DNA from: Oscillospiraceae bacterium
Lineage (GTDB): Bacteria; Bacillota; Clostridia; Oscillospirales; JAAYXM01
Length of the DNA stretch: 64,000 bases
Reading direction: 5' to 3'
Assembly: GCA_017409405.1 (NCBI GenBank)
Contig: JAFQSU010000007.1
Span: forward strand, 20,767 to 84,766
Notes under the pieces: generated by a model
Told to the model about the DNA's origin: nothing
The model's database searches: none
What the model saw: only the letters and a program-made list of their open reading frames with translations
Position numbers and translations under genes: made by a program
Part shown: one piece after another, positions 4,344-60,206 of the stretch
How positions within the stretch are numbered: the first letter of the stretch is position 1
Layout of the letters: the number at the start of each line of letters is the position of its first letter

Positions 4344-4462
4344 AAAATTTCTCCAATAAAAAGAAAAAGCCCGGACGGGAAGAAGCTTCCTGCGGCGTCG
4401 TGAGCTAAATCTTTTTGCGGAGCGGAAACATCTTTTTTCCTTCCGCTCCGTGTTATTCTGAC

Positions 4463-4597: not shown

Positions 4598-4663
4598 TTC
4601 TTTACACCTCCGATATAAAAATTCATGCGGAAAACCGCACCATTCGATACAGTGTCATCAAAC

Positions 4664-4693
4664 ATTATAAAATAAACAGGTGCAAAATGTCAA
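4664..4693 (-). promoter_or_regulatory. candidate rpmH promoter, divergent from dnaA
   Basis: Minus strand TTGACA, 18-nt spacer, TATAAT. Confidence 0.5.
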
Positions 4694-4775
4694 CAGTTTT
4701 TTTGTTTTTTTATAAAAAAGCAGGATTGAGCCTTAAATTTTTTCTATATATATAAATATATATATGTAAATTCTG

Positions 4776-4804
4776 TTTACAAAAATTCATTTTTCTGCTA
4801 TAAT
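4776..4804 (+). promoter_or_regulatory. candidate dnaA promoter
   Basis: TTTACA (4776-4781), 17-nt spacer, TATAAT (4799-4804). Preceded by a pure A/T tract tatatatataaatatatatat. Confidence 0.6.
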
Positions 4805-4839
4805 CATTACAGTAAAAATATAGTGGGGGAATTTGACTT

Positions 4840-6147
4840 ATGAACAACGCTGCCGATATCTGGAAGAGCGTTTTACGTATTCTCAGAGAACAGTTTGAAA
4901 TGAGTGAAATCACGCTTCAGACGTGGTTTGAAGACATCCGTGCTTCCGAGCTTCGTGACAACATCCTCGTCCTTGTCACTCCTGCGGAATTTAAAAAGAA
5001 TGTCATTCTCACTCATCACACACAAAAAATCAACGATGCTCTTTTTGCTCTGTTTTCCGTTCCGATGAGCTTTGAGCTTTACACAACCGAAGAGTTTGAG
5101 GGCTCTCTTGCGCCGATAATTCCCGACTTTTCAAATTATGAAGAATATTCTTTTGAAAAGTTCATTGTCGGCTCTTCAAACAAGTTTGCCCATGCCGCCG
5201 CAAAGGCCGTTGCCTCCGCTCCCGGCAAAACCTATAATCCGCTTCTCATTCACGGCGGCTCGGGACTTGGCAAAACCCATCTTCTCTACGCCATTGCAGG
5301 CACAATCAAAAAGAACAACCCTAAAGCAAAAATCACTTATATCAAAAGCGAGGATTTCACAAACGAGCTTGTTTCCTCCATCCAGAGCGGCACCTTACCT
5401 CAGTTTCGTGAAAAATACCGAAGCTCAGACATTCTCCTTGTTGACGATATCCAGTTCATAGCCGGCAAGGAAAGCACGCAGGAAGAGTTTTTCCATACCT
5501 TCAATGCCCTTCATGAGGCACACCGTCAGATAGTTCTCACGTCTGACCGTCCGCCCAAGGAAATGGCAAAGCTTGAAGAACGTCTCAAAACCCGTTTTGA
5601 ATGGGGTCTTCTTGCTGATATCGAACCGCCTGATTTTGAAACAAGAATGGCAATCGTCAGCTTAAAGGCACAGCTTATAGGTCTTAACCTTACCACAGAG
5701 CAGAAGGAGCTTATCGCAAATAACGTAACGGCAAATGTCCGTCAGCTTGAGGGCGCCGTACATAAGCTTCTTGCCTACCGTGACCTTCTTCAGGACGTTG
5801 ACGGGCTTCAGGCGGCAGAACGTGCCATACGCGATATTTTCGCCGAAAACCCGTGGATTAACCCGACCCCTGAATTTATTATCAAGGCGGTTGCGAAATA
5901 CTTTGAAATCGACCCCGAAGAAATCATCGGCAAGGACCGCTCTTCAAAAATGGTTGAGCCGAGAAAAATTGCGATGTATATGGTGCGCGACATGACTCAC
6001 GAATCCTATCCCAAGATGGGAAAGGTCTTCAACCGTGACCACGCAACCGTTAAATACTCCGTCGATTCTCTTGAAGAACAGCTCAAGACCGATGCGGTGC
6101 TTCGTGAAAAAATTCAGGACGTTAAAAACTCGGTTCTTACACCGTAG
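4840..6147 (+). CDS. dnaA: chromosomal replication initiator DnaA
   Basis: 435 aa. Walker A GGSGLGKTHL, DDIQF box, C-terminal DNA-binding domain (DHATVKYS). Confidence 0.98.
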   Translation: MNNAADIWKSVLRILREQFEMSEITLQTWFEDIRASELRDNILVLVTPAEFKKNVILTHHTQKINDALFALFSVPMSFELYTTEEFEGSLAPIIPDFSNYEEYSFEKFIVGSSNKFAHAAAKAVASAPGKTYNPLLIHGGSGLGKTHLLYAIAGTIKKNNPKAKITYIKSEDFTNELVSSIQSGTLPQFREKYRSSDILLVDDIQFIAGKESTQEEFFHTFNALHEAHRQIVLTSDRPPKEMAKLEERLKTRFEWGLLADIEPPDFETRMAIVSLKAQLIGLNLTTEQKELIANNVTANVRQLEGAVHKLLAYRDLLQDVDGLQAAERAIRDIFAENPWINPTPEFIIKAVAKYFEIDPEEIIGKDRSSKMVEPRKIAMYMVRDMTHESYPKMGKVFNRDHATVKYSVDSLEEQLKTDAVLREKIQDVKNSVLTP

Positions 6148-13405: not shown

Positions 13406-13408
13406 AAA

Positions 13409-13530
13409 GGCTTCCCCTCAAGGGGAAGCTGTCACGAAGTGACTGATGAGGTGTAGATTGCGGAGTAATCGTTATTTTTCCACCTCATCCGCCTCGTTCC
13501 TCGGCACCTTCCCCTCAAGGGGAAGGCTGA
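13409..13530. repeat. about 120-bp composite palindromic element (family A), arms ending in CTTCCCCTCAAGGGGAAG hairpins
   Basis: Hairpins at 13411-13428 and 13507-13526. Inner GTCACgaaGTGAC hairpin at 13431-13443. GATGAGGTG (13445) pairs with CACCTCATC (13481). The 3' end runs into the rnhA SD. A related hairpin plus SD sits at 47657-47690. Confidence 0.8.
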
Positions 13531-13545
13531 GAAAGGACTTATACT

Positions 13546-15191: not shown

Positions 15192-15344
15192 TATAAATGG
15201 AAAATTGATAATGGAAAATTGATAATTAAGGAGAAATCGCTTTGCGATTTCAAGTCAAATTGTTTTGATAAAATCAAAACACCATAACTTTCCATTTTCA
15301 ACTTTCAATTTTCCATTAAATAAACGACGAAGGAGTTTTTTATA
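15192..15344 (+). repeat. about 150-bp structured palindromic element (family B), copy 1, ending in the nifU SD
   Basis: Left arm 2 x AATGGAAAATTGAT (15196-15223). Right arm ...CTTTCAATTTTCCATT (to 15317). Inner hairpins at 15233-15251 and 15262-15280. Tail ACGACGAAGGAGTTTTTT then ATG. Second copy at 45867-46014. Confidence 0.85.
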
Positions 15345-15900: not shown

Positions 15901-16974
15901 ATGTTAGCATATATGACGGCAAACGAGGCAGCTGAAAAATGGAACATATCTCATAGAAGAGTTTTGACTCTTTGCAAAGAAAATCGCATTGCTGATATTG
16001 CTATGCTCGGAAACATGTGGATTATACCAATTGATGCAATAAAACCGGAAGACGCAAGGAGCCTTCGTTATAATAAAGGTGACGAGAAAGCTGTTAAACC
16101 TTTTTTGAAATGGGCTGGAGGAAAAGGGCAACTTATTAAAGAAATTGAAGCTTATTATCCTTTTAAAGACGGAAATATCACAAAATATGCAGAGCCTTTT
16201 GTTGGTGGCGGCGCAGTTTTATTTGACATTCTCAGCAAATATGAATTGAAAGAAGTTTATATAAGCGATATCAATGCTGAGCTTATGAATACTTATTTTA
16301 TTGTTCGCGACAATATAGATGCCTTGATTGAAAAACTACATGAAATGCAAAACAGTTTTATACCGTTAGAAGTAGAAAAGCGGAAAGCATATTATATGCA
16401 AAAGAGAATGCTGTTTAATAAGTTAAAAGAGAACACAAATGAAAAGAGTAATATTGAAAAAGCGGCAACAATGATATTTTTGAACAAAACCTGCTTTAAT
16501 GGTCTTTTTCGAGTAAATAAAAAAGGACTATTCAATGTTCCTATGGGATCTTATAAAAACCCCTTGATTTGCGATGAGAAAAACCTCAGAGCAGTATCGG
16601 AAAAATTACAAAAAATCACAATTGTTTGCGGAGATTACAGGGAGTCAGCAGACTTTATTGACAAAAACACATTTGTATATTTTGATCCACCATACAGACC
16701 GATTACGGAAACCGCAAGTTTTACTGCATATACAGAAAGTTTATTTAAGGATGAAGAACAGATTGAACTTGCGAAATTCGTTGATGAAATGCACAAAAAA
16801 GGAGCAAAAATAGTTGTTAGCAGTTCTGATCCGAAAAATACAAACAAAGAAGATGATTTCTTTGATAATATTTATGCTGCCCATAATATAAAACGCGTTG
16901 AAGCTACAAGAATGATTAACTGTAACAGTAAGGCAAGAGGAAAAATTACGGAATTGCTTATTTCTAATTTTTAA
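15901..16974 (+). CDS. Dam-family DNA (adenine-N6) methyltransferase with N-terminal HTH domain
   Basis: The track ORF starts at GTG 15892; ATG 15901 lies 8 nt after AAGGAAG, and ATG 15913 is also possible. Excisionase-like HTH MTANEAAEKWNISHRRVLTLCKENRI. Dam motifs KWAGGKGQL, EPFVGGGAV, FDPPY. Confidence 0.88.
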   Translation: MLAYMTANEAAEKWNISHRRVLTLCKENRIADIAMLGNMWIIPIDAIKPEDARSLRYNKGDEKAVKPFLKWAGGKGQLIKEIEAYYPFKDGNITKYAEPFVGGGAVLFDILSKYELKEVYISDINAELMNTYFIVRDNIDALIEKLHEMQNSFIPLEVEKRKAYYMQKRMLFNKLKENTNEKSNIEKAATMIFLNKTCFNGLFRVNKKGLFNVPMGSYKNPLICDEKNLRAVSEKLQKITIVCGDYRESADFIDKNTFVYFDPPYRPITETASFTAYTESLFKDEEQIELAKFVDEMHKKGAKIVVSSSDPKNTNKEDDFFDNIYAAHNIKRVEATRMINCNSKARGKITELLISNF

Positions 16975-16987
16975 GGAGAATTGAGTT

Positions 16988-17518
16988 ATGATAAAAAACG
17001 GCAAAGGTGGAGGAAATACCAAAACAGGTCTGGTTTTTGAAGGAAAGACAGATTTATCAACATTTCTTTCTATGCAAAAAGGGTATCAAGTAATCGAAGA
17101 TAAGGTATTTTACCAAGACGAACTGGTCGCAAGGATTTTTAAAAAGCACGACTTTTATAAGAAATTTCTTAAAGAGCTTGAGATAGATTGGACAAAGATT
17201 ATATCAAAGCAATTATTGCCGGACGACAGTATTTTTGTAATAATAAAGAACACATTATATATTATAGAGTGCAAGTTTCAGCAAGTGGCAGGCTCGGTTG
17301 ATGAAAAATTACAAACGTGTGATTTTAAGAAAAAACAGTATCAAAAGTTACTCTCAAAAGCAAATATAGATGTGGAATATATGTATTTGTTAAGTGATTG
17401 GTTTAGAGATGCTCGTTATAAAGACGTATTAGATTATATACATAGTGTCAGATGCCACTATTATTTTGAATATATTCCGCTGTATAAATTTGGATTGCCG
17501 GTTCCGGAAGAAGAATGA
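16988..17518 (+). CDS. putative type II restriction endonuclease, PD-(D/E)xK fold
   Basis: 176 aa, sandwiched between two methyltransferase genes. P78-D79...E94-C-K96 (LLPDDSIFVIIKNTLYIIECK). AAGGAG RBS. Family not recognised. Confidence 0.6.
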   Translation: MIKNGKGGGNTKTGLVFEGKTDLSTFLSMQKGYQVIEDKVFYQDELVARIFKKHDFYKKFLKELEIDWTKIISKQLLPDDSIFVIIKNTLYIIECKFQQVAGSVDEKLQTCDFKKKQYQKLLSKANIDVEYMYLLSDWFRDARYKDVLDYIHSVRCHYYFEYIPLYKFGLPVPEEE

Positions 17519-18264
17519 AAATGAAGAAAATAATTAGATGGGAGCCGGAAAACTTTGAATTGGAAATGACTACACATTGGTCTTTTCCAAAACGAGGAGA
17601 CTGGGCGACACACGATGCCAAATGGCGTGGAAATTGGTCACCTTATATACCGAGGAATATCATTTTGAGATATTCACATGAAGGAGATATGATTCTTGAC
17701 CAATTTGCCGGAGGCGGAACAACCCTTGTCGAAGCAAAGCTTTTAAACAGAGATATAATTGGTGTAGATATAAACGATGTTGCGATAGAACGATGTAAGG
17801 AAAAAACAACATTTGATTATCAGTCGGCGACCGGAAAGGTATACATAAAAAAGGGAGATGCAAGAAAGCTTGACTTTATTCCCAATGAAAGCATTGATCT
17901 TATATGCACACATCCGCCGTACGCAGATATTATCAAGTACAGCGAAGAAATCAATGGAGACTTATCTCAGTTAAAAGTTAAAGAGTTCGTTGAAGAAATG
18001 AAAAAAGTGGCAGCGGAAAGTTATCGCGTCTTAAAAAAGGACAAGTTTTGTGCCATCCTTATGGGAGACACACGGCAAAAAGGGCATATGATACCAATGT
18101 CGTTTGATGTAATGCGTGTTTTCCAAGAAGCCGGATTTAAACTGAAAGAAATTATTATTAAAGAGCAACACAATTGTAAGGCGACGGGATATTGGAAAAC
18201 TAACAGCGTAAAGTACAACTTTTTATTGATAGCGCATGAATATTTGTTCATCTTTAGAAAATAA
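17515..18264 (+). CDS. SAM-dependent DNA methyltransferase (motif I before motif IV; HPPY)
   Basis: 249 aa. 4-nt ATGA overlap with the nuclease gene. LDQFAGGGTTLVEAKLLNRDIIGVDIN (SAM site) at aa 61-87 and CTHPPYAD at aa 131-138. Confidence 0.8.
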   Translation: MKMKKIIRWEPENFELEMTTHWSFPKRGDWATHDAKWRGNWSPYIPRNIILRYSHEGDMILDQFAGGGTTLVEAKLLNRDIIGVDINDVAIERCKEKTTFDYQSATGKVYIKKGDARKLDFIPNESIDLICTHPPYADIIKYSEEINGDLSQLKVKEFVEEMKKVAAESYRVLKKDKFCAILMGDTRQKGHMIPMSFDVMRVFQEAGFKLKEIIIKEQHNCKATGYWKTNSVKYNFLLIAHEYLFIFRK

Positions 18265-20019: not shown

Positions 20020-20029
20020 TAAGAAGATA

Positions 20030-32723: not shown

Positions 32724-32768
32724 TTAACTTTGTGCCAACTTTTTTCCACCCCTAAAATCGAAAATTTC
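32724..32768 (-). repeat. 45-bp repeat (family E), copy A
   Basis: The reverse complement, gaaattttcgattttaggggtggaaaaaagttggcacaaagttaa, matches 41196-41239 at about 41/46 positions. Confidence 0.8.
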
Positions 32769-39429: not shown

Positions 39430-40872
39430 ATGAAACAGTTTAAACCCGTTATAATATGTGCAGTTGTGCTCCTTGTAGTGGCTGCCCTCGCATTCGGTGC
39501 AATAAAGCTTTTCCCCGAGATAAGCGACACCACCGACAACCCCGTAAACGACGGCCCTGCAACGAGCGGACTGAACAAAATTGTTGACCGCTCATCTCAG
39601 GACGTAAAAAGTGTTGAGATAACGACTGACGGCGGCGAAAGCTTTGCTATCGACTATTCAAAGGACAGCATCGGCGCACAGACTGCAACGATGCGCGGTG
39701 CAGATGCAAGGCTTGCATACAGCGAGAGCGAAATGACAACGCTTTCGGGCTTTGTGGGGCTGCTTGTAGCTCTTGAAGAAGTTGGTACGGGCGAGGATTC
39801 GCTGTTCGGCTTTGATAAGCCGCAGAGAACTATAAAGGTCACCTTCAATGACGGAGAGACCGTAACACTTCTTATAGGAAGCGAAACTCCGCTCGGCACA
39901 GGCGTGTATATCCGCCGTACCGACCGCGACACGGTCTATACCGTCGGCGGAAGCACGACCGACATTCTTATGATGACCAAATCCGACTACCGCGACATAG
40001 AGCTCTTTGATACAATTTCGTCCGCAGACCTTCTTACAAGCGTCACGGTTTCCCGTCCGGGAAAGCCCGACCTTACCGTTTTGAGAAAAGAAGATGCCGA
40101 CGAGAAGAAGGAAATGACGCAGGCAGAGGCGGCTCTTGCGACGGATTATGAGATAGTCTCTCCGATAAAGCGCGACGCAAACCCCGACACAATCAACTCC
40201 GCACTTCTTGACAAGGTCATTGCGATAAAGGCAGCAGCTCTTGTTGAGGACTATCCGAAGGACCTTGCAAAATACGGACTCTCAAAGCCCGTAAAGCTTA
40301 GCTTCAAAACCTCAGAGGGCGGCGATGTAACGCTTCTTATCGGTGATAAGGCTCCCGACGGCGGCAGATATGTAATGCCCGACGGTGTTCCTACGGTTAT
40401 TGCGACAGAGGAAGACTGTGACTTCACGGCTATAAGCCATGCGGATATCGCAACACGCCTGCTCTGGTACTTCGCTTCCGAGGACGTTTCCGAGGTCTTA
40501 TATGAGCTTCCCGGCGGTGCACGCCACACCCTCAAGCTCACGGCGGACGATAAATCGCTCAAGGGCGTTTATGACGGCAAGGAAATGACGGGCAAAAATG
40601 CCACAAACCTCTTCCTCCGCACAATCCGCTTCACGCTTTCGGGTGAGTACACAAGCGACATGAAGTACGGAGAAAGTGCCGTGAAGATTACTGCAAAGCT
40701 CAGCACAGGCAAGACAACAACGCTTGAGCTTTGTGAGATAAATGAACGTCAGTACGCCGCCATTATAGACGGCAAGGCTCCGCAGTTCTACGTCAGCGTG
40801 GGCGAGGTTAAAGAGCTTATCGAGTCCTTTGACATTCTCGCACGCGGCGAAGACATCCCCGATATGTTTTAG
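39430..40872 (+). CDS. DUF4340-like membrane-anchored protein
   Basis: Trimmed to MKQFKPVIICAVVLL after AAGGAG. Single N-terminal TM. Usual partner of GldG-like proteins. Confidence 0.7.
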   Translation: MKQFKPVIICAVVLLVVAALAFGAIKLFPEISDTTDNPVNDGPATSGLNKIVDRSSQDVKSVEITTDGGESFAIDYSKDSIGAQTATMRGADARLAYSESEMTTLSGFVGLLVALEEVGTGEDSLFGFDKPQRTIKVTFNDGETVTLLIGSETPLGTGVYIRRTDRDTVYTVGGSTTDILMMTKSDYRDIELFDTISSADLLTSVTVSRPGKPDLTVLRKEDADEKKEMTQAEAALATDYEIVSPIKRDANPDTINSALLDKVIAIKAAALVEDYPKDLAKYGLSKPVKLSFKTSEGGDVTLLIGDKAPDGGRYVMPDGVPTVIATEEDCDFTAISHADIATRLLWYFASEDVSEVLYELPGGARHTLKLTADDKSLKGVYDGKEMTGKNATNLFLRTIRFTLSGEYTSDMKYGESAVKITAKLSTGKTTTLELCEINERQYAAIIDGKAPQFYVSVGEVKELIESFDILARGEDIPDMF

Positions 40873-40891
40873 AAATAATAAGATATGGGAC

Positions 40892-40917
40892 AGAGACTAT
40901 CCTTTCGGACAGTCTCT
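40892..40917. repeat. mini-hairpin made of MITE-end-like sequences (AGAGACTATCC-tttc-GGACAGTCTCT)
   Basis: Lies directly 5' of MITE copy 2. Its 3' half equals the MITE right terminus GGACAGTCTCT. Confidence 0.7.
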
Positions 40918-40918
40918 C

Positions 40919-41140
40919 AGACTGTCGAAAAAGGCGCGAGAACATAAGCGGAGAAAAAATAAAAGAGAGTTTCTTCGCAAAACAAACATTGACCAAAAGC
41001 AAATGCACGCATATTTAAAATCCCTTGAAGTGTCGAACTTCAAGGGATTTTCCGCTTATTTTGCCCGAAGGCATCCCTCGGAGTATACATATACACCTTC
41101 GGGTTCCATTCGGACAATCTCACACCTTTTTGGACAGTCT
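40919..41140 (+). mobile_element. MITE-like non-autonomous element, copy 2 (222 bp)
   Basis: Same TIRs and central hairpin (41022-41046) as copy 1. Confidence 0.75.
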
Positions 41141-41195
41141 CTGTTTTTCTGTGCATTTTAATGTAGCACAGCGGAAAAATCTACCCGTCACTCAC

Positions 41196-41239
41196 GAAAT
41201 TTTCAATTTTTAGGGTGGAAAAAGTTGGCACAAAGTTAA
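41196..41239 (+). repeat. 45-bp repeat (family E), copy B
   Basis: gaaattttcaatttttagggtggaaaaagttggcacaaagttaa, inverted relative to 32724-32768. Confidence 0.8.
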
Positions 41240-41296
41240 GACAACCCCCGGGGCTTGGGGTCGCAAAACCCCAATCGGTTTAACCGGATTTTCTCG

Positions 41297-41325
41297 TTGA
41301 CAAACGGGTGTGAAAGTGGTATACT
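41297..41325 (+). promoter_or_regulatory. pyr operon promoter
   Basis: TTGACA (41297-41302), 17-nt spacer, TGgTATACT (extended -10; hexamer 41320-41325). Confidence 0.7.
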
Positions 41326-41424
41326 GATTAAAATAAAATCTTTAACGACGGTACCGTGATGCCGGCAAGATTTGTAATACTTTAAAAATGCAGGGCGAGT
41401 CCTTGTATGTTTTTGTGTGCGTAC

Positions 41425-41452
41425 ATCTTGCCTTCATGGGCAAGATTTTTTG
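41425..41452 (+). terminator. leader terminator (attenuator) 19 nt upstream of pyrC
   Basis: ATCTTGCC-ttcatg-GGCAAGAT followed by TTTTTT. An upstream GGCAAGAT (41364-41371) can pair with the 5' arm as an antiterminator. Confidence 0.7.
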
Positions 41453-41470
41453 TTGTGTGAGGTCATCTGA

Positions 41471-42682
41471 ATGTTTGGTTTTTTTAAGAAGAATACCGTT
41501 AAAAGCTTCATAGCAAAAGAGGCTGCAGCGTCCTGCCATACCTTGGCAAAGACGTTTATTCCCTCTTTCTCTTCAAAATATGCTGTTTTTCCCGGCTTTT
41601 GTGATGTGCATGTGCATTTCCGTGAGCCGGGCTTTTCTTATAAGGAAACTATCTTCACCGGCTCCCGTGCCGCGGCAAGGGGCGGATATACCGCCGTCTG
41701 CACGATGCCGAATCTCTCCCCCGTGCCCGACAGCGCAGAAAACATCACCGCACAGCTTAAAATCATTGAGCGTGATGCGTGCATAGACGTTTTCCCCTAC
41801 GGCGCAATCACCGTCGGTCAGAAGGGCGAAGCGCTCTCGGACATGGATGCACTTGCACCTCTTGCCGTTGCATTTTCCGACGACGGGCGCAGTGTACAAA
41901 ACGATGATATGATGCGTGCGGCAATGCAAAAGGCAAAAGAGCTTGATAAAATTCTTGTCGCTCACTGTGAAGACGTGAGAGAGCTTAAGCCGGGCGGCTG
42001 CATCCACGCCGGGGCATATGCCGCAGCCCACGGGTATGTCGGTATAAATTCCGAGAGTGAATGGCGACAGGTTGAGCGAGACCTTAAACTTGTGCGTGAA
42101 ATCGGCTGTAAATACCACGTCTGCCACGTTTCCACGGCAGAAACCGTTGAGCTTATCAGACAGGCAAAGCGTGAGGGGCTTGACGTGACGTGCGAAACGG
42201 GTCCCCACTATCTTGTCATGTGCGATGAGGACATCGGCGAGGACGGAAGATTTAAGATGAATCCCCCGATACGCGCATCCCGTGACCGTGATGCACTTGT
42301 CGCAGGCATCATCGACGGCACGGTTGACATGATTGCGACCGACCACGCCCCACATTCGGCAGAAGAAAAGGCAAAGGGTCTCTCGGGCAGCGCTTTCGGC
42401 GTTGTCGGGCTTGAAACGGCTTTCCCCGTGCTTTACACACACCTTGTAAAGAAAAAAATAATTACCCTCGAAAAGCTTGTTGAGCTTATGTCGTCTGCAC
42501 CGAGAAAGCGCTTTAACATCCCTGCCGGAGATGACTTTACCGTATGGGATTTAAACGCAAAGTTTACCGTAAACCCCGACGATTTTCTCTCTCTCGGACG
42601 TGCTACCCCGTTTGAGGGCGAAACACTTTTTGGAAAATGCTTACTTACCGTTCATCACGGCAAGCCGGTTTATAAAATATAG
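41471..42682 (+). CDS. pyrC: dihydroorotase
   Basis: 403 aa. Metal ligands DVHVHFREPG, CEDV, DHAPH. Confidence 0.95.
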   Translation: MFGFFKKNTVKSFIAKEAAASCHTLAKTFIPSFSSKYAVFPGFCDVHVHFREPGFSYKETIFTGSRAAARGGYTAVCTMPNLSPVPDSAENITAQLKIIERDACIDVFPYGAITVGQKGEALSDMDALAPLAVAFSDDGRSVQNDDMMRAAMQKAKELDKILVAHCEDVRELKPGGCIHAGAYAAAHGYVGINSESEWRQVERDLKLVREIGCKYHVCHVSTAETVELIRQAKREGLDVTCETGPHYLVMCDEDIGEDGRFKMNPPIRASRDRDALVAGIIDGTVDMIATDHAPHSAEEKAKGLSGSAFGVVGLETAFPVLYTHLVKKKIITLEKLVELMSSAPRKRFNIPAGDDFTVWDLNAKFTVNPDDFLSLGRATPFEGETLFGKCLLTVHHGKPVYKI

Positions 42683-42694
42683 GAGGCAAAAACA

Positions 42695-45600
42695 ATGGCA
42701 AAACGTACAGACATCAAAAAAATTCTCATTATCGGCTCGGGTCCTATCGTAATCGGTCAGGCCGCAGAGTTTGACTATGCAGGCACACAGGCATGCCTTG
42801 CGCTCAAGGAAGAGGGCTACGAGGTTATCCTCTGCAACTCCAACCCTGCCACGATAATGACCGACACCACCATTGCGGACAAGGTTTACATGGAGCCGCT
42901 CACACTTGAATACATCGCAAAGATTCTCCGCCACGAGCGTCCCGATGCCATTGTTCCGGGTATCGGCGGTCAGACGGGACTCAACCTTGCAATGCAGCTT
43001 GAAAAGAAGGGCGTTCTCAAGGAATGCGGCGTTGAGCTTCTCGGCACATCAAGCGAGAGTATCGAGCGTGCCGAAGACCGTGAGCTTTTCAAGGAGCTTT
43101 GTGAGTCCATCGGTGAGCCTACCATCCCGTCGGAAATTACCTACTCGCTCGACGAGGCAAAGGCGGCGGCTGAAAGAATCGGTTACCCCGTTGTTCTCCG
43201 TCCTGCGTTTACGCTCGGCGGTACGGGCGGCGGCTTTGCATATAACGAGGAAGAGCTTGTTGAGGTTGGTCTCAATGCGTTCAAGCTCTCCCCTGTTCAT
43301 CAGGTTCTTATCGAAAAGAGCGTCCGCGGATATAAGGAGATTGAGTTTGAGGTTATGCGTGACTCTGCTGATCACGCAATCACCATCTGCGGTATGGAAA
43401 ATATAGACCCTGTCGGCGTTCATACGGGTGACTCTCTCGTTGTCGCTCCCATCATGACACTTTCCGATGCAGACAAGAAGATGCTCAACGACAGCGCAAT
43501 CAAGCTCATCCGTGAGCTTAAGATAGAGGGCGGCTGCAATGTTCAGTTCGCGCTCAACCCCGATTCAAGCGAGTACTACCTCATTGAGGTCAACCCCCGT
43601 GTCTCCCGTTCCTCCGCTCTCGCTTCAAAGGCAAGCGGATACCCCATTGCACGAGTAACCGCAAAAATCGCTGTCGGCATGGAGCTTTCCGACATTGCAA
43701 TAGCAAACACAACGGCTGAGTTTGAGCCGAGCCTCGACTATGTCATCGCAAAGCTTCCGAGATTCCCGTTTGATAAGTTCGCAACTGCTCCCAACACCCT
43801 CGGCACACAGATGAAGGCAACGGGTGAGGTTATGGGCATCGGCTCTAGCCTTGAAGAGTGCCTGCTCAAGTCTGTCCGTTCACTTGAAACGGGTGCTGAC
43901 CACTTCTGGCTGCCGAAGTTTGACGGAAAATCCCTTCCGGAGCTTCTTGACTATATCCGCGAATTTAAGGATGACAACATCTTTGCTATCGCCGAAGCCT
44001 TCCGCCTCGGCTGTGACACAGACACGCTGTTTGACATAACAAAAATAACACGCTACTTCCTTGAATCGGTTAAAAGAATTGTTGACGAGGAAACCGTTGT
44101 TGAAAAGAACTGCGGCGATGTTGAAACACTGAAAGCCGCAAAGAAGATGGGCTTTTCCGACAAGTTCATTGCCCGTCTGTGGAACATGAAGGAAATTGAC
44201 ATTTACAATCTTCGCAAAGAGAAAAACATCTTCCCGATATACCGTATGGTCGATACCTGCCACACGGGTGCATACATCCCGTATTTCTATTCCTCATACA
44301 CGGGCGAGAACGCATCACGCCTTACCGACAAAAAGAAAATCGTTGTTCTCGGTGCAGGTCCCATACGTATCGGTCAGGGCGTTGAGTTTGACTACTCAAC
44401 TGTCCATGCCGTAACCACAATCAAAAACTCGGGCTATGAGGCCATCATTATAAACAACAACCCCGAAACGGTTTCAACCGACTACACAACCGCCGATAAG
44501 CTCTACTTTGAACCGCTGACAACCGAAGATGTTATGAACATCATTGAGTTTGAAAAGCCCGAGGGCGTTATAGCCTCTCTCGGCGGACAAACTGCAATCA
44601 ACCTTGCCGAGCCGCTCATGTCACGCGGCGTAAAAATCATCGGTACGGACTGCGAAGCTATTGAACGTGCCGAAAACCGCGACAGCTTTGAAAAAATCCT
44701 CCGTGAGCTCGGTATTCCTCAGCCTAAGGGTCATGCCGTAACAAACATAGAAGACGGCATCCGCTCTGCCGCAGAGATAGGCTACCCTGTCCTCGTCCGC
44801 CCCAGCTTCGTTCTCGGCGGCCGTGCAATGCAGATTGTCTCAAACGAGGATCAGCTTCGCCACTACCTCAAAACGGCGGTTGAAATTGACGAGGACAAGC
44901 CCGTGCTTGTCGATAAATACATTCAGGGAAAAGAGGTTGAGGTTGACGCTATCTGCGACGGACGTGACGTGTTCGTTCCGGGCATTATGGAGCTTGTCGA
45001 GAGAACGGGCGTTCACTCCGGCGACTCAATAAGTGTATATCCGACCTTCTCGATTTCCGATAAGGTACGCGGAATCATTCTGCAGTACGCAAAAAAGCTC
45101 GGTCTCGGCATAGGAATTGTCGGTCTTTACAACATCCAGTTCATTGTCGATAAGGATGACAACGTATTTATCATTGAGGTAAATCCGCGCTCGTCAAGAA
45201 CCGTCCCGTTCCTTTCAAAGGCAACAGGCTACTCGCTTGCCGATATCGCAACAGAGGTTATCCTCGGAAAATCTCTCAAGGAGCAGGGCATATTTGATAT
45301 ATATCCGCCTGAGAAAAAGCGCTGGTATGTAAAGGTTCCGGTATTCTCCTTCAACAAAATCCGCGGTCTTGACGCTTACCTCTCCCCCGAGATGAAGTCA
45401 ACCGGTGAGGCTATCGGCTATGACGACAAGCTCAACCGCGCACTCTATAAGGCACTTCAGGCATCGGGAATGCATCTCCAGAACTACGGTACGGTGTTTG
45501 CAACGATTGCCGATAAGGACAAGGAAGAAGCACTTCCCCTCATCCGCCGCTTCTACAACCTCGGCTTCAATATTGAAGCGACTGAGGGCACTGCAAAATT

Positions 45601-45868
45601 CCTTAAGGAAAACGGCATCCGCACGCATATCCTCAAAAAACTTTCCGACGGCAGTGAGGAGATTGCCGATGCACTTCGTCAGGGACATATAGCATACGTC
45701 ATCAATACGCGCGACATTGCATCGAGCGGTACGGAGAGCGACGGTCATCAGATCCGCCGCCTTGCGACGGACAACAACGTCACAATCTTCACGGCACTTG
45801 ATACCGTCCGGGTACTCCTTGATGTTCTTGAAGAAACAACGCTCACAATTTCTACAATTGATGCTTAA
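42695..45868 (+). CDS. carB: carbamoyl-phosphate synthase large subunit
   Basis: 1057 aa. Duplicated ATP-grasp halves and a C-terminal MGS-like domain. Confidence 0.98.
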   Translation: MAKRTDIKKILIIGSGPIVIGQAAEFDYAGTQACLALKEEGYEVILCNSNPATIMTDTTIADKVYMEPLTLEYIAKILRHERPDAIVPGIGGQTGLNLAMQLEKKGVLKECGVELLGTSSESIERAEDRELFKELCESIGEPTIPSEITYSLDEAKAAAERIGYPVVLRPAFTLGGTGGGFAYNEEELVEVGLNAFKLSPVHQVLIEKSVRGYKEIEFEVMRDSADHAITICGMENIDPVGVHTGDSLVVAPIMTLSDADKKMLNDSAIKLIRELKIEGGCNVQFALNPDSSEYYLIEVNPRVSRSSALASKASGYPIARVTAKIAVGMELSDIAIANTTAEFEPSLDYVIAKLPRFPFDKFATAPNTLGTQMKATGEVMGIGSSLEECLLKSVRSLETGADHFWLPKFDGKSLPELLDYIREFKDDNIFAIAEAFRLGCDTDTLFDITKITRYFLESVKRIVDEETVVEKNCGDVETLKAAKKMGFSDKFIARLWNMKEIDIYNLRKEKNIFPIYRMVDTCHTGAYIPYFYSSYTGENASRLTDKKKIVVLGAGPIRIGQGVEFDYSTVHAVTTIKNSGYEAIIINNNPETVSTDYTTADKLYFEPLTTEDVMNIIEFEKPEGVIASLGGQTAINLAEPLMSRGVKIIGTDCEAIERAENRDSFEKILRELGIPQPKGHAVTNIEDGIRSAAEIGYPVLVRPSFVLGGRAMQIVSNEDQLRHYLKTAVEIDEDKPVLVDKYIQGKEVEVDAICDGRDVFVPGIMELVERTGVHSGDSISVYPTFSISDKVRGIILQYAKKLGLGIGIVGLYNIQFIVDKDDNVFIIEVNPRSSRTVPFLSKATGYSLADIATEVILGKSLKEQGIFDIYPPEKKRWYVKVPVFSFNKIRGLDAYLSPEMKSTGEAIGYDDKLNRALYKALQASGMHLQNYGTVFATIADKDKEEALPLIRRFYNLGFNIEATEGTAKFLKENGIRTHILKKLSDGSEEIADALRQGHIAYVINTRDIASSGTESDGHQIRRLATDNNVTIFTALDTVRVLLDVLEETTLTISTIDA

Positions 45869-46014
45869 TAAATGGAAAATTGATAATGGAAAATGGAAAA
45901 TTAAGGAGAAATCGCTCGGCGATTTCGATTAAAATGTTTTGTGGATACAAAACACCTGAACTTTCAATTTTCAACTTTCAATTTTCAATTAAAAAAACGA
46001 CGAAGGAGTTTTTT
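45867..46014 (+). repeat. family B structured palindromic element, copy 2, ending in the pyrK SD
   Basis: Aligns along its whole length with 15192-15344. Inner hairpins at 45908-45926 and 45936-45953. Same tail ACGACGAAGGAGTTTTTT then ATG. Confidence 0.85.
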
Positions 46015-46746
46015 ATGACTCAATCAGTTTTTACGATAAAATCAAATATCGCACTTACAGAAAGTGTTTACAAAATGACGCTTTCGGGCGACTGCTCCGA
46101 ATGTCGCCCCGGCGGATTTGTCAACATTCAGCTTACGGGAAGGTTTTTGCGCCGTCCCATCTCCGTCTGTGATGCATATGAAAACACACTTGTTATCATA
46201 TACAAGGTTGTTGGCAAGGGTACGGAGCAGATGTCACGCATGCAGCCCGGAGAGGCTCTTGATATCCTCACGGGGCTTGGCAACGGCTATGACCTTTCAA
46301 AGGGAGGAAGCCACCCTCTCCTTATCGGCGGCGGTGTTGGCGTGCCGCCTATGTACATGCTTGCAAAAGAGCTTATTGCCGGAGGTGCGGAAGTCTCCGT
46401 CATTCTCGGCTTCAATACGAAGGAAGAGATTTTTTACGAGAATGAGTTCCGTGCCCTCGGCGCGGACGTAACCGTCACAACCGTTGACGGCAGCTACGGA
46501 GTACAGGGTTTTGTCACCGATGCGGCAAAGGGTATGGAATACACACACGTTTTCACCTGCGGTCCCGAGCCGATGCTTCGCGCAGTGTACAAAAGCATAA
46601 AGGGCGACGGTCAGTTCAGCTTTGAAGAACGCATGGGCTGTGGATTCGGTGCATGCATGGGCTGCTCATGCAAGACCGTTACGGGGTATAAGCGCATATG
46701 CAAGGACGGACCCGTTCTCCGGAAGGAGGAGATTTTATGGGATTAA
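46015..46746 (+). CDS. pyrK: dihydroorotate dehydrogenase electron-transfer subunit
   Basis: Track ORF (45880) trimmed to MTQSVFTIK after GAAGGAG. FAD/NAD domain and a C-terminal 2Fe-2S Cys cluster (CGFGACMGCSC). Confidence 0.93.
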   Translation: MTQSVFTIKSNIALTESVYKMTLSGDCSECRPGGFVNIQLTGRFLRRPISVCDAYENTLVIIYKVVGKGTEQMSRMQPGEALDILTGLGNGYDLSKGGSHPLLIGGGVGVPPMYMLAKELIAGGAEVSVILGFNTKEEIFYENEFRALGADVTVTTVDGSYGVQGFVTDAAKGMEYTHVFTCGPEPMLRAVYKSIKGDGQFSFEERMGCGFGACMGCSCKTVTGYKRICKDGPVLRKEEILWD

Positions 46747-47642
46747 ATGTTAACCTTTGCGGAATTGAGCTTGATAATCCGGTCATTCCGGCAAGCGGAA
46801 CCTTCGGCTACGGCTACGAGTTTGCCGAAATTTATGACATAAACGTTCTCGGCACGTTTTCGTTTAAGGGAACAACAAAGGACGCAAGATTCGGAAATCC
46901 GACCCCGAGAATCGCCGAGTGTGCCGAGGGCATGATTAACGCTGTGGGTCTCCAGAATCCGGGTGTTGACAAGGTAATATCGGAAGAGCTTCCGAAGCTC
47001 TCTAAGTGCTTTAATAAAAAGGTTATGGCAAATGTTTCGGGCTTTTCCGTTGAGGACTACGCATATACCTGTGCAAGGCTTGATAAGGAAGAGCAGGTCG
47101 GCTGGCTTGAAGTGAATGTAAGCTGTCCCAATGTACACGGCGGCGGCATGAGCTTCGGCACTGACCCGTCTGCCGCCGCAGAGGTCACCCGTGCGGTAAA
47201 GGCGGTCACGACAAAGCCCGTCATCATAAAGCTTTCACCGAATGTTACCGACATCGTTTCAATCGCCAAGGCGTGTGAAGAAGCCGGCGCTGACGGTATA
47301 AGCCTTATAAACACCCTTCTCGGCATGAGAATCGACCTTAAAAAGAGAGCACCCGTAATCGCAAACAAAATGGGTGGGTTTTCCGGCCGCGCAATTTTCC
47401 CCGTTGCCGTGAGAATGGTATATCAGGTTGCAAATGCAGTTGATATCCCCGTTATCGGCATGGGCGGTGTTTCAAGTGCTGAGGATGTTATAGAGATGAT
47501 GATGGCAGGCGCTTGTGCCGTCGAGGTAGGTGCGGCAAACCTTATCAACCCAACCGCCTGCCGTGATATCATAGCTGACCTTCCGAGGGTTATGAAAAAA
47601 TACGGAATAGAAAATCTGAGTGATATTATACGTTGCGTATAA
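46737..47642 (+). CDS. pyrD: dihydroorotate dehydrogenase B catalytic subunit
   Basis: Trimmed to MGLNVNLCGIELDNPVIPASGTFG after GGAGGAG. Overlaps the pyrK end by 10 nt. Confidence 0.95.
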   Translation: MGLNVNLCGIELDNPVIPASGTFGYGYEFAEIYDINVLGTFSFKGTTKDARFGNPTPRIAECAEGMINAVGLQNPGVDKVISEELPKLSKCFNKKVMANVSGFSVEDYAYTCARLDKEEQVGWLEVNVSCPNVHGGGMSFGTDPSAAAEVTRAVKAVTTKPVIIKLSPNVTDIVSIAKACEEAGADGISLINTLLGMRIDLKKRAPVIANKMGGFSGRAIFPVAVRMVYQVANAVDIPVIGMGGVSSAEDVIEMMMAGACAVEVGAANLINPTACRDIIADLPRVMKKYGIENLSDIIRCV

Positions 47643-47656
47643 TTTGCGGATATGAA

Positions 47657-47690
47657 GGCTTCCCCTTGAGGGGAAGGCTCAAGAAAGGAG
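47657..47690 (+). repeat. family A hairpin + SD module upstream of pyrF
   Basis: GGCTTCCCCTTGAGGGGAAGGCTCAAGAAAGGAG; compare 13505-13538 upstream of rnhA. Confidence 0.75.
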
Positions 47691-47699
47691 ATTTTAACT

Positions 47700-48398
47700 A
47701 TGGGAAAAGACGTAATTGTAGCATGCGATTTTAAAAGCGCAGAGGATACCTTTGCTTTTCTTGACAAATTCACGGGAAGAAAGCCGTTTGTCAAAATCGG
47801 TATGGAGCTTTTTTATGCCGAGGGACCGAGCATTGTCCGTGAGATAAAGGCGCGCGGACACAAGATTTTCCTCGACCTGAAGCTTCACGATATCCCGAAC
47901 ACCGTAAAAAAGGCAATGTCGGTGCTCAGAAATCTTGACGTTGACATTACAAACCTGCATGCCGCAGGCACAAAGAGTATGATGGAGGCGGCAATCGAGG
48001 GACTCACCCGTCCCGACGGCACACGTCCGCTTCTTATTGCCGTAACACAGCTTACCTCAACGGACCAGGAAGCGATGGAGCGCGACCTGCTTATAAAAGA
48101 GCCGATTGACAAGGTTGTAATGCATTATGCAAAGACTGCAAAGGATGCAGGTCTTGACGGTGTTGTATGCTCACCGCTTGAAGCTGAGAAGGTACACGAT
48201 ACATGCGGCAAAACATTTCTTACGGTTACCCCCGGAGTCCGCTTTGCCGACGGTGATATCGGTGACCAGAAGCGTGTTATGACACCTGCCGAGGCAAAGA
48301 AAATCGGTTCTGACTATATAGTTGTCGGACGTCCGATAACCGCGGCGGATGACCCCGTTGCGGCATACGAGAGATGTGTCAGTGACTTTGTCGATTAA
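47700..48398 (+). CDS. pyrF: orotidine 5'-phosphate decarboxylase
   Basis: 232 aa. Motifs DLKLHDIPNT and VVGRPIT. Confidence 0.96.
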   Translation: MGKDVIVACDFKSAEDTFAFLDKFTGRKPFVKIGMELFYAEGPSIVREIKARGHKIFLDLKLHDIPNTVKKAMSVLRNLDVDITNLHAAGTKSMMEAAIEGLTRPDGTRPLLIAVTQLTSTDQEAMERDLLIKEPIDKVVMHYAKTAKDAGLDGVVCSPLEAEKVHDTCGKTFLTVTPGVRFADGDIGDQKRVMTPAEAKKIGSDYIVVGRPITAADDPVAAYERCVSDFVD

Positions 48399-48414
48399 AC
48401 CGACAAAGTGAACG

Positions 48415-48511
48415 CTGTCACCCTGAGCTTGTCGAAGGGTCCCCTACGGGTGAGGTAGAGATTCTTCGACTGCGCCTGACACGTTGTGTCAGGCTTCGCT
48501 CAGAATGACAG
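48415..48511. repeat. 97-bp palindromic element (family C)
   Basis: TIRs CTGTCACCCTGAGC / GCTCAGAATGACAG. Nested GTCGAAG/CTTCGAC and a GCCTGACAC-gtt-GTGTCAGGC hairpin. A half copy lies at 60119-60172. Confidence 0.8.
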
Positions 48512-48548
48512 ATTGAAAAAGGTTTCAATATATTAAGGAGGAATAATC

Positions 48549-49184
48549 ATGCAAAAGCTTATTGCTAAGGATTTACTTAAAATAAAGGCGGTTTTCTTCC
48601 GTCCGGACGAGCCGTTCACATGGGCAAGCGGTATCAAAAGCCCTGTTTACTGCGATAACCGCCTCACTCTTACCGCACCCGAGGTAAGAAACGATGTCGA
48701 AAACGGTCTTGTTTCACTTATCCGTGAACATTACCCCGAAGCAGAAGTGCTTATGGGCACATCAACTGCAGGTATTGCTCACGCCGCTATCTGCGGTCAC
48801 ATCATGGGTCTTCCGATGGGTTATGTCCGTTCCGGTGCAAAGGACCACGGCAGAAACAATCAGATAGAGGGTCGCCTTCTTTCCGGTCAGAAGGTCGTTG
48901 TTGTCGAAGACCTCATCTCCACGGGCGGAAGCTGTATCGAGGTTGTAAATGTTCTCCGTGAGGCAGGTGCAGAGGTTTTAGGCATCGTCAGCATCTTTAC
49001 CTACGGCATGCAGAAGGGTCTTGACCGTCTTGCGGCGGCAGAGGTCAAAAACGTCTCTCTCACAAACTTTGACGTTATTGCCGAAGTTGCGGCAGAAGAA
49101 AAGTATATTAAGCCCGAGGACGTTGCACGTCTTATAAAGTTCCGCAACAATCCGTCGGATGAGAGCTGGATAGCAAACGCATAA
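48549..49184 (+). CDS. pyrE: orotate phosphoribosyltransferase
   Basis: 211 aa. PRPP-binding motif VVVVEDLISTGGS. Confidence 0.96.
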   Translation: MQKLIAKDLLKIKAVFFRPDEPFTWASGIKSPVYCDNRLTLTAPEVRNDVENGLVSLIREHYPEAEVLMGTSTAGIAHAAICGHIMGLPMGYVRSGAKDHGRNNQIEGRLLSGQKVVVVEDLISTGGSCIEVVNVLREAGAEVLGIVSIFTYGMQKGLDRLAAAEVKNVSLTNFDVIAEVAAEEKYIKPEDVARLIKFRNNPSDESWIANA

Positions 49185-49194
49185 GCGTTTGCAG

Positions 49195-49371
49195 TTATAT
49201 AAATCCCAAAAGGGATTTGTGATATGCCCTTCGGGCGTGATATATTGCTTCGCAATGTGATATGCCTTCGGGCGTGAGGGGATTTATATAATATCACTTG
49301 ATGCGAAAGCATCAAATATCACAATTCACGAAGTGAATTATATCACATCGAGCGAAAGCGAGATATATCAC
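49195..49371. repeat. array of seven 7-mer-anchored mini-hairpins (3 x GTGATAT, then 4 x ATATCAC)
   Basis: GTGATAT at 49219, 49237 and 49257. ATATCAC at 49291, 49316, 49340 and 49365 (24-25-bp period). Each interval is its own small hairpin. Outer inverted repeat TATATAAATCCC (49195) / GGGGATTTATATA (49278). Confidence 0.85.
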
Positions 49372-49404
49372 TTTGATCAGTTGGCTTATAAAGGAGATAA
49401 AGAT

Positions 49405-50487
49405 ATGAGAAGTCTTATAGATATACTTGACCTTACGGTAGAAGAAATTGAAGAGCTTATGCACGTTGCATGCGACATCATCGCAAATCCGTGGAAGTAT
49501 TCGGAAATGTGCCGCGGCAAAAAGCTTGCAACACTCTTCTTTGAGCCGTCCACACGCACACGCCTGTCCTTTGAGGCGGCTATGCTTGAGCTTGGCGGAA
49601 GTGTGCTCGGCTTTTCCGAAGCATCGACCTCATCTGCCGCAAAGGGCGAGAGTGTTGCCGATACCGCAAAGGTCATGAGCTCATATTGCGACATCATCGC
49701 AATGCGCCACCCCAAGGAGGGCGCACCGTATGTTGCGGCAAGAAACGCAACAGTCCCCGTCATCAATGGCGGTGACGGCGGTCACTGCCACCCCACACAG
49801 ACACTTACAGACCTTCTCACGATATACCGTGAAAAGGGGCATCTTGATAACATAACCGTGGGATTTTGCGGAGACCTCAAATTCGGCAGAACCGTACATT
49901 CTCTTATTCATGCGCTTTCGAGATATGCAGGGATAAAGGTTATTCTCATCTCCCCCGAGGAGCTCAAGGTTCCGAGCTATGTCAAAAAGGAAAACGCTTT
50001 CGAGTATGAGGAAACAACCTCGCTTGAAGAAGCTATGCCGAAGCTCGACGTCCTTTATATGACACGCATCCAGAAGGAACGCTTTGAAACCGATGCCGAA
50101 TACGAAAGATTAAAGGACAGCTACATACTCACTCCCGAAAAGCTCGTTTCCGCAAAGAGTGATATGTGTATTCTCCACCCCCTGCCGAGAGTAAACGAAA
50201 TCAGCGTTGCCGTTGACTCCGACCCCCGTGCATGCTACTTCAGACAGGTTGCAAACGGAAAGTATATCCGTATGGCACTCATCTTAAAGCTTCTTGAAGA
50301 GGCAAGACGTGACGGAAACTCCGCACTTGAAGACGAAGGCTTTATCAAGGGCGAGCACCGTTGCTTTAATCCGAGATGCATAACCTCGTGCGAGCAGGAA
50401 ATTGAGCATATGTTCAAGGTTTCGCATTCCGGCGCACACCGCTGCGTATATTGCGAAGCAAAGGCGCGTAATCTTGATAATAATTAA
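49405..50487 (+). CDS. pyrB: aspartate carbamoyltransferase catalytic chain fused to a PyrI-type zinc domain
   Basis: Track ORF (49333) trimmed to [10 protein letters not shown] after AAGGAG. STRTR, HPTQ and HPLP motifs. About 55 extra C-terminal aa with CFNPRC...x21...CVYC. Confidence 0.9.
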
Positions 50488-50496
50488 ATATGTACG

Positions 50497-50530
50497 AAAA
50501 GGCCGATGTGTATTGCATCGGCTTTTTTTG
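50497..50530 (+). terminator. pyr operon terminator
   Basis: GCCGATG-tgtattg-CATCGGC followed by TTTTTTT. Confidence 0.85.
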
Positions 50531-60110: not shown

Positions 60111-60118
60111 AGCTCCAC

Positions 60119-60172
60119 TGTCCTCCTGAGCGAAGCGAAGCGGAATCGAAGGATCCCCTACGAGCGAGGGAT
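60119..60172 (+). repeat. family C half-copy
   Basis: CTGTCCTCCTGAGC...TCGAAGGATCCCCTACGAGCGAGG, compared with CTGTCACCCTGAGC...TCGAAGGGTCCCCTACGGGTGAGG at 48415. Confidence 0.7.
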
Positions 60173-60206
60173 AAAGTAAATTCACACCAATCCGGAGATG
60201 ATACAA

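Follow-up and report, generated by a model that had tools for sequence, protein, structure and literature searches.

Short hairpin-forming repeats that settle between bacterial genes have been known since 1982. REP (repetitive extragenic palindromic) elements and bacterial interspersed mosaic elements (BIME) of enterobacteria, together with the REPINs of Pseudomonas, are short, extragenic and hairpin-forming, often lie within operons, and occur singly or in clusters of alternating orientation; protection of upstream mRNA segments is a known feature of REP/BIME. The Correia/NEMIS elements of Neisseria, RUP and BOX of Streptococcus pneumoniae, and ERIC/IRU are miniature inverted-repeat transposable elements (MITEs), that is, small, non-coding, multi-copy and intergenic, with terminal inverted repeats, co-transcribed with their neighbours and polymorphic between strains. 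REP was first described as an ‘intercistronic regulatory element’ affecting mRNA stability (PMC3184786). Gut-1 (RF01706) was described from human-gut metagenomes only, as a candidate non-coding RNA with no function, and was classed as a gene of its own and not as cis-regulatory (Weinberg et al., 2010; PMC2864571). Furthermore, d(GCGNAGC) is an extraordinarily stable DNA mini-hairpin (PMC13037366; PMC3201870), of a kind that occurs in the single-strand origins of phages and plasmids. Here we describe 64 kb of DNA from an uncultured Oscillospiraceae bacterium (contig JAFQSU010000007.1; the whole stretch is called the window), in which the gaps of the seven-gene pyr operon hold several hairpin-forming repeats, one of them matching Gut-1. 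These gap repeats are likely to be recent, dispensable and strain-variable insertions of small hairpin families, selfish repeats that settled inside the operon. The pattern is the REP/BIME/MITE type of colonisation; the families are new.

The operon lies on the plus strand and its genes were assigned by Pfam. After correction of two start codons, its junctions measure, in gene order, 12, 146, −10 (an overlap), 57, 150 and 220 nt. The TTG at 45880 was rejected as the start of pyrK, being a gene-caller extension into the family B element, and the GTG at 49333 is an extension of pyrB into the pyrE-pyrB element. Repeat copies were checked by blastn within the window, folding strength was expressed for each region as z against shuffled sequences, and Rfam was scanned with permissive cut-offs over 40800-49500. 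Numbers with the prefix L (L001, L203 etc.) label the compared loci and strains. The genes and the elements in and before the operon are as follows.

40918-41141, strand not assigned: MITE-like element, copy 2, 224-226 bp, 95% identical to 20062-20287
41175-41239 (~65 nt), plus strand: family E repeat, truncated left end of a longer element
41471-42682, plus strand: pyrC
42695-45868, plus strand: carB
45869-46014, plus strand: family B in the carB-pyrK gap, 88% identical to 15194-15343
46015-46746, plus strand: pyrK, corrected start
46737-47642, plus strand: pyrD
47655-47691, plus strand: family A in the pyrD-pyrF gap, hairpin CTTCCCC-TTGA-GGGGAAG at 47659-47676
47700-48398, plus strand: pyrF
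48415-48511, strand not assigned: family C between pyrF and pyrE, a palindrome whose arms are CTGTCACCCTGAGC and GCTCAGAATGACAG and which has two inner hairpins
48549-49184, plus strand: pyrE
49194-49371, strand not assigned: Gut-1-type composite in the pyrE-pyrB gap, from Rfam RF01706, inverted repeat and fold
49405-50487, plus strand: pyrB, corrected start

The original prediction for this DNA had placed a different structured repeat in each of the carB-pyrK, pyrD-pyrF, pyrF-pyrE and pyrE-pyrB gaps (B, A, C and a heptamer array, respectively), with a MITE and family E upstream. Copies, folding and Rfam all bear this out; the repeats are distinct, as was claimed, but the ‘five repeat types’ then counted are six elements. 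Further copies and associated hairpins are listed here.

13406-13545, plus strand: full family A composite in the gyrA-rnhA gap, consisting of an A hairpin, GTCACGAAGTGAC, GATGAGGTG...CACCTCATC, and an A hairpin with ribosome-binding site
15194-15343, plus strand: family B copy between nifS and nifU, which, like the one in the pyr operon, closes with the ribosome-binding site of the next gene
20062-20287, strand not assigned: MITE copy 1, 95% identical to copy 2
48385-48409, plus strand: hairpin over the pyrF stop codon, ACTTTGTCG-ATTAAAC-CGACAAAGT
49173-49192, plus strand: hairpin over the pyrE stop codon, GCAAACGC-ATAA-GCGTTTGC, part of the inserted segment

Family B is a long A/T-rich imperfect hairpin with 36-nt arms of GGAAAAT-like oligomers (45871-45906 and 45955-45990) and two inner hairpins (z = −4.1), and it ends in its own ribosome-binding site, GAAGGAGTTTTTT, immediately 5' of the pyrK ATG. 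Region 45869-46016 is 88% identical over 150 nt to the nifS-nifU copy (E=1e-35), and the homology reaches the start codon. Family A consists of a GC-rich 7-bp hairpin followed by GGCTCAAGAAAGGAG, which contains a ribosome-binding site; its region folds at a z of only −1.45. Its hairpin (47658-47676) recurs at 13411-13429 and 13507-13525 with 19/19 identity, which upholds the hairpin as first proposed, except that it proves to be the solo end of a composite of ~130 nt, bracketed by two A hairpins in gyrA-rnhA and found also in the carB-pyrK gap of the sister species L212.

Family C (z = −5.9), assigned to a wider ‘GTCAYYCTGAGCGAAGC...’ group, is followed on its 3' side by a small hairpin (48512-48529) and then a ribosome-binding site. 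Within the window its repeat signal is weak (17 nt, E=0.11); a copy in L203 (12429-12466, E=4e-10) and the alignment of six copies, drawn from four genomes, confirmed the family. Copies lie at 60111-60175, at 12395-12470 of L203, in two pyr junctions of L073 and in L157. A literature search for its core sequence returned nothing relevant. The left arm of the hairpin over the pyrF stop codon is coding, and the right arm, which is missing in the empty allele of L207 and L211, arrived with the insertion. Families A, B and C are palindromic and extragenic like REP/BIME, from which they differ in their sequences. REP/BIME reach tens to hundreds of copies per genome and are associated with a RAYT transposase; 2-3 copies of each family were seen in ~73 kb, and the window is devoid of a RAYT transposase.

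Upstream of the promoter, MITE copies 40918-41141 and 20062-20287 are 95% identical over 226 nt (E=4e-97; z = −7.4 for the region). Copy 2 has 17-nt terminal inverted repeats, CAGACTGTCGAAAAAGG (40918-40934) and CCTTTTTGGACAGTCTC (41125-41141), complementary at 15/17 positions, as well as an internal perfect hairpin of 15 bp (41017-41051), and its insertion point is the 3' arm of the terminator hairpin (40890-40917) of the upstream DUF4340 gene. Its size (below ~500 bp), its terminal inverted repeats, the two copies found in 64 kb, and its presence or absence among strains make it MITE-like. It is likened to the Neisseria, pneumococcal and ERIC/IRU elements by these properties and by strain polymorphism and co-transcription with its neighbours, and differs from them in showing no clear target-site duplication: GGACAGTCTCT stands at both borders of copy 2 but belongs to the right end of the element, and copy 1 has no such duplication. 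Gene calling also puts a spurious open reading frame (ORF) of 110 aa in the MITE. Copy 1 and the 28 nt that follow it (to 20315) lie between a 33-nt hairpin (20029-20061) and the exact reverse complement of that hairpin (20316-20348), in which the loop is inverted; the whole (20029-20348) forms a larger nested palindrome with a z of −15.

Family E (41196-41239) has a minus-strand copy at 32724-32768 (91%, E=3e-8), and a third one, just beyond the window (L203, 12598-12657), stretches it to 41175-41239, such that the repeat first proposed is real and is the truncated end of something longer. In L207 and L211, 660 further nt follow E (41239; 2253-2912 in L207), bounded by an 11-nt direct repeat, CACAAAGTTAA. 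This segment holds a 62-aa ORF of no known family; in the two other E copies, ~30 nt and then a terminator hairpin follow, resembling a tiny transcription unit.

The original prediction had also suggested comparing the pyr operon among relatives. A PyrF search with one genome per species gave 80 loci, all from uncultured Oscillospiraceae, Faecousia or Acutalibacteraceae-type metagenome-assembled genomes with at most 92% amino-acid identity. Gene order is kept across these loci and the junctions are tight, with medians of 22 (pyrC-carB), 14 (carB-pyrK), −10 (pyrK-pyrD), −1 (pyrD-pyrF), 33 (pyrF-pyrE) and 0 nt (pyrE-pyrB). No junction is expanded in 35 of the 56 fully measurable operons, and three or four are expanded in only 4; the spacer total of the window, 573 nt, exceeds that of all 44 operons without gene-sized inserts. 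In the nearest species, L001, the four junctions that hold elements in the window measure 14 (carB-pyrK), 18 (pyrD-pyrF), 14 (pyrF-pyrE) and 42 nt (pyrE-pyrB). Because these short junctions use the same ribosome-binding sites that adjoin the 3' side of the window elements, each gap element is an insertion between stop codon and ribosome-binding site; L213 also has short junctions that look ancestral, and keeps these ribosome-binding sites too. Judged by sequence comparison, the four gap elements are derived relative to the tight junctions of relatives.

The occupants of the junctions change from species to species. L001 is without family A and the Gut-1 element, and L213 without family C and the Gut-1 element. 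L212 has the full A composite in carB-pyrK and another element in pyrF-pyrE, lacks both the pyrD-pyrF copy of A and the Gut-1 element, and its nifS-nifU gap is 34 nt only. The MITE, A and C gave no blastn matches among the 80 relatives' loci and are therefore lineage-specific at the sequence level. Expanded pyr junctions of relatives hold C-like (L073, L003) and B-like (L012) elements, small GC hairpins, and heptamer-hairpin arrays. Such arrays occur in pyrK-pyrD of L005 and L077, in carB-pyrK of L006 and, as a remnant, of L011, upstream of pyrK in L068 (where the contig ends inside the array), in pyrF-pyrE of L038, and just after pyrF in L029.

The closest evidence comes from strains of the same species, which were located via PyrE homologues with 99-100% identity and whose flanking DNA is 96-99% identical to the window. 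In L207, L208 and L211 the carB-pyrK gap is 45 nt long and carries a family A hairpin in place of B, and the pyrF-pyrE gap, at 19 nt, is empty of C. L206 has family C and lacks the Gut-1 element; its pyrE-pyrB gap of 41 nt resembles that of L001, and its PyrE ends in ..SWIK, as in L001. L211 has no MITE, and its empty site is an intact terminator hairpin, while L209 carries the MITE inverted, next to different upstream genes, at a rearrangement breakpoint. Family A at pyrD-pyrF is kept in 5/5 conspecific strains examined there. Thus, for B, for C, for the Gut-1 element and for the MITE there is in each case a conspecific strain without it, and one junction holds B, A or nothing, depending on the strain: the gap elements are dispensable and turn over quickly. 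An assembly artefact was ruled out as the source of the gap repeats, because the same sequence recurs in independent samples and assemblies. The suggestion that dispersed repeats had colonised the gaps accordingly holds, given empty sites in relatives and in conspecific strains and the same families in other co-directional junctions (B in nifS-nifU, the A composite in gyrA-rnhA).

How the operon would tolerate such insertions depends on its transcription signals, of which the convincing ones are these.

41297-41325, plus strand: near-consensus promoter TTGACA-17-TATACT, from the promoter scan
41335-41454, plus strand: pyr leader with a PyrR-type attenuator, not a repeat, from Rfam PyrR (RF00515)
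41425-41446, plus strand: leader terminator hairpin followed by a T-run, from the terminator scan
50502-50530, plus strand: intrinsic terminator closing the operon 3' of pyrB, GCCGATG...CATCGGC followed by a T-run

The leader attenuator and the hairpin after pyrB are the convincing plus-strand terminator sites of the operon; in the four gap elements, the terminator scan gave no convincing sense-strand intrinsic terminator (a GC-rich hairpin with a T-run). The gaps contain one promoter-like site (48505-48534, 10/12 matches). The host is an uncultured gut Oscillospiraceae, close to ‘Faecousia’, with several unrelated families of small, non-coding, hairpin-forming dispersed repeats, and its pyr operon has gathered one element in each junction able to accept one. 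The elements probably arrived secondarily, via transposition-like insertion, and whole alleles probably then spread among strains through homologous recombination. They would be tolerated, and presumably neutral, as they lie after the stop codon of one gene and before the ribosome-binding site of the next and bring no sense-strand terminator; A and B supply their own ribosome-binding site, and C and the Gut-1 element leave one in place. Insertions would survive only with this placement, no terminator and an intact ribosome-binding site. Since sense-strand terminators are absent and ribosome-binding sites are kept or supplied, the pyr operon should still work. Hairpins at the 3' end of a cistron and 5' of the next ribosome-binding site would, as with REP, shield mRNA segments from exonucleases, and thus the elements probably alter local mRNA decay as a by-product.

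Several observations weigh against recent, dispensable insertion. Over 246 nt, the Gut-1 element is 100% identical among four strains (the window, L207, L209 and L211), in which the flanks differ by ~1.3% and ~3 differences would be expected. The recurrence of arrays in the pyr junctions of several lineages leaves room for a selected role. Comparison of filled and empty alleles revealed no clean target-site duplications, and the alleles differ in neighbouring codons too, so the primary insertion events are not directly visible. The window has no transposase or RAYT gene, and mobility is therefore read from polymorphism alone. The differing codons next to the elements, and a segment with 96% identity where the rest has 98.7%, suggest that alleles probably move between strains by homologous recombination.

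Among the alternatives, the one that survives best is that the operon benefits from the elements and for that reason keeps them: as stable hairpins they would stabilise mRNA or punctuate its processing, giving the seven cistrons different half-lives or translation rates. Their strong predicted structure, their position just past stop codons and just before ribosome-binding sites, the ribosome-binding sites brought by A and B, and the precedent of REP all fit this idea, as do the identity of the Gut-1 element in four strains and the recurrence of arrays in the pyr junctions of about five lineages. We nevertheless regard it as improbable: members of one species differ in the presence of elements and even in the family occupying a gap, 35 of 56 related operons have no expanded junction, and the same families sit in unrelated gaps. 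Nor does array enrichment at pyr junctions reach significance under a conservative null. With all arrays counted (8/10 in pyr junctions), P is 0.002 by base pairs and 0.04 by junction count; with independent events (5/7), it is 0.03 and ~0.2, respectively, and we do not claim enrichment, which is not significant under the conservative junction-count null. No pyr-specific role was found. The idea that the repeats were ‘retained because functional’ goes unsupported: strains of the species exist that lack one or more of B, C, the Gut-1 element and the MITE, and in some of them A takes the place of B.

A preference for intercistronic gaps, raised at the same time, has likewise not been established. 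In the window, family repeats occur in 10/27 co-directional gaps of at least 45 nt and in 1/9 convergent or divergent ones; there are more family repeats in co-directional gaps than in others, a difference that is suggestive only, and the array recurrence has P~0.2. Strong structure as such is common, being present in 22 of the 37 gaps of at least 30 nt, many of them ordinary terminators. In the heat-shock operon on the minus strand (26418-26567 and 28401-28618), the grpE-dnaK gap of 218 nt and the dnaK-dnaJ gap of 150 nt have z of −6.2 and −7.9; the dnaK-dnaJ gap holds a B-like long hairpin with oligomer-repeat arms.

The pyrE-pyrB element deserves separate treatment. It is a quasi-palindrome of ~180 nt in which GTGATAT, repeated three to four times, is followed by ATATCAC four times, with a small perfect hairpin between neighbouring heptamers (z = −6.0 for the gap). 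Its left half (49192-49268) matches the full Gut-1 model (1-77) on the plus strand with 67.4 bits, above the gathering score of 50, and its right inverted unit (49286-49373) matches on the minus strand with 45 bits, just under that threshold; Rfam models only the left half, with three hairpins. A long-range helix pairs TTATATAAATCCC (49195-49207) with GGGATTTATATAA (49279-49291). The native ribosome-binding site of pyrB (49391-49397) lies outside the element, and the inserted segment alters the PyrE C-terminus from ..SWIK, as in the empty alleles of L206 and L001, to ..SWIANA. The end-to-end match and the gut origin are shared with the Gut-1 motif. However, Rfam enters Gut-1 as a small RNA (sRNA) gene of three hairpins, and here the match is half of a composite, inside an operon and missing in a conspecific strain.

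The same composite architecture is seen in L088, L121, L006, L005 and L143, and in the flanks of the original Gut-1 seeds both the inverted ATATCAC array and the long-range helix are found again. Heptamers are identical within one element and different between elements, even in one genome (GTGATAT, GTGAAAT, TCGATAT, ATGTAAT, GTGAAGT), and variants with the last three fail the Rfam threshold. The orthologous arrays of L005 and L077 have their first hairpin in common, yet every heptamer differs between them by the same two substitutions. Without exception, the right array is the left one's reverse complement, and the intervening hairpins are unrelated in sequence. The Gut-1 type inverts the pattern of REP in that its short linkers are conserved and its hairpin stems variable. 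For the 5' arm of the first hairpin there is one local and one distal partner, and both co-vary across five arm sequences; these pairings were tabulated by hand, as the MAFFT alignment slipped register in the long-range helix. Loops were counted in the window element (49194-49371) and in arrays of L005, L006, L038, L088, L092, L097, L110, L157 and others. A C-G pair closes 49/52 hairpins, and a T-N-C triloop stands on the Rfam strand in 24/52. On the opposite strand the apex reads GCGNAGC in 14/52 hairpins and CGNAG in 24, against 0 and 3, respectively, on the Rfam strand; the likeness to the known mini-hairpins concerns the apex sequence only.

A strict chain-of-hairpins scanner overlooked the array of the window itself. 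Since a relaxed one found 9 hits in shuffled sequence, acceptance was restricted to arrays that had 4 or more units or clear hairpins. In a metagenome scan for GTGATAT-N-GTGATAT-N-GTGATAT, ~10 of the 80 loci examined among 120 matches were true hairpin arrays, the rest being ordinary tandem repeats. Outside operons, Gut-1-type arrays often lie shortly downstream of tRNA genes, at 30-40 nt in L005 (15273-15560), L121 (1405-1693) and L038 (11661-11964) and at ~275 nt in L143 (3783-4703), and one original Gut-1 seed is likewise downstream of a tRNA gene; other arrays stand between convergent genes. Two Gut-1 seed contigs (BAAY01013587.1 and hgutS8_s8_175002) carry UUUCCAUUUUCAAUUUUCAACUUUCAAUUU in their flanks, very like the family B arm, and the repeat families therefore seem to travel together in the same gut lineage.

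Gut-1 behaves as a mobile composite repeat with concerted evolution of its heptamers, not as a stand-alone sRNA gene. We put forward tentatively, as an unlikely but not negligible reading, the wider proposal that Gut-1 is no sRNA gene: it would be the half so far noticed of mobile ‘heptamer-hairpin array’ elements, a class not described before. If this is true, the array pattern would point either to growth by templated addition of units or to pairing between half-arrays, and the GCGNAGC loop bias on the strand opposite the Rfam model would point to action as single-stranded DNA rather than RNA. To our knowledge, no mechanism explains the combined features of these arrays.

It could be argued instead that the pyrE-pyrB element is a Gut-1 RNA with its own function: an sRNA gene, or else a structured RNA acting in cis to control pyrB by alternative local and long-range pairing. 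Its location directly upstream of pyrB, its passing of the Rfam gathering score and the covariation of both partners of the first 5' arm could be expected of such an RNA. We hold this to be very unlikely, for the element is absent in the conspecific L206 as well as in L213 and L001, and the promoter and terminator scans gave it neither a promoter nor a terminator of its own, so that, inside an operon, it does not have the make-up of a stand-alone non-coding RNA gene. Related arrays, moreover, are found in pyr junctions other than pyrE-pyrB, downstream of tRNA genes and between genes that converge, and they stand in both orientations with respect to the sense strand; the loop bias suits DNA mini-hairpins on the strand opposite the Rfam model.

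That the gap structures are extra PyrR binding sites giving segment-wise attenuation, as in Bacillus subtilis, whose pyr operon has PyrR sites between cistrons, is largely refuted and hardly credible: the leader does have a PyrR-like attenuator (45.3 bits to RF00515, E=7e-4, under the gathering score of 54; 78% conserved in L001), but within the scanned range of 40800-49500 Rfam matched only this leader and Gut-1, leaving no PyrR site in the intercistronic gaps, and the gap elements are without a sense-strand terminator.

Small selfish insertions thus remain the preferred explanation of the gap repeats, and some further observations on the operon and the window may be recorded. No pyrR gene was recognised among the scanned window proteins. 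carB follows pyrC directly without an adjoining carA (the small subunit), and no carA was found among the scanned proteins either. PyrB has a C-terminal PyrI_C zinc-binding domain and looks like a catalytic-regulatory fusion; many relatives align only to its residues 1-300. A low-GC stretch at 15901-18264 (34% in 16001-18000) encodes a D12-class adenine methyltransferase, a PD-(D/E)XK nuclease-domain protein and a fragment of an N6/N4 methylase, and is probably an acquired restriction-modification island. At 4344-6147 lies dnaA, with a structured divergent spacer of 496 nt upstream of it and, on the far side, rpmH-rnpA-yidD-yidC-jag; the start of the window is accordingly in the chromosomal origin region.

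The filled and empty natural alleles described here document the fast turnover of small structured repeats in a core metabolic operon of uncultured gut Clostridia. The survival rule for such insertions seems to be placement between stop codon and ribosome-binding site, no terminator, and an intact ribosome-binding site. For annotators, the case is a warning that gene callers run ORFs into such elements. In other respects it adds a new set to the well-known small intergenic repeats, and most is gained from what it reveals about Gut-1: an orphan Rfam family gains a host clade and a genomic behaviour (mobile, composite and dispensable), which should alter how it is annotated and studied.

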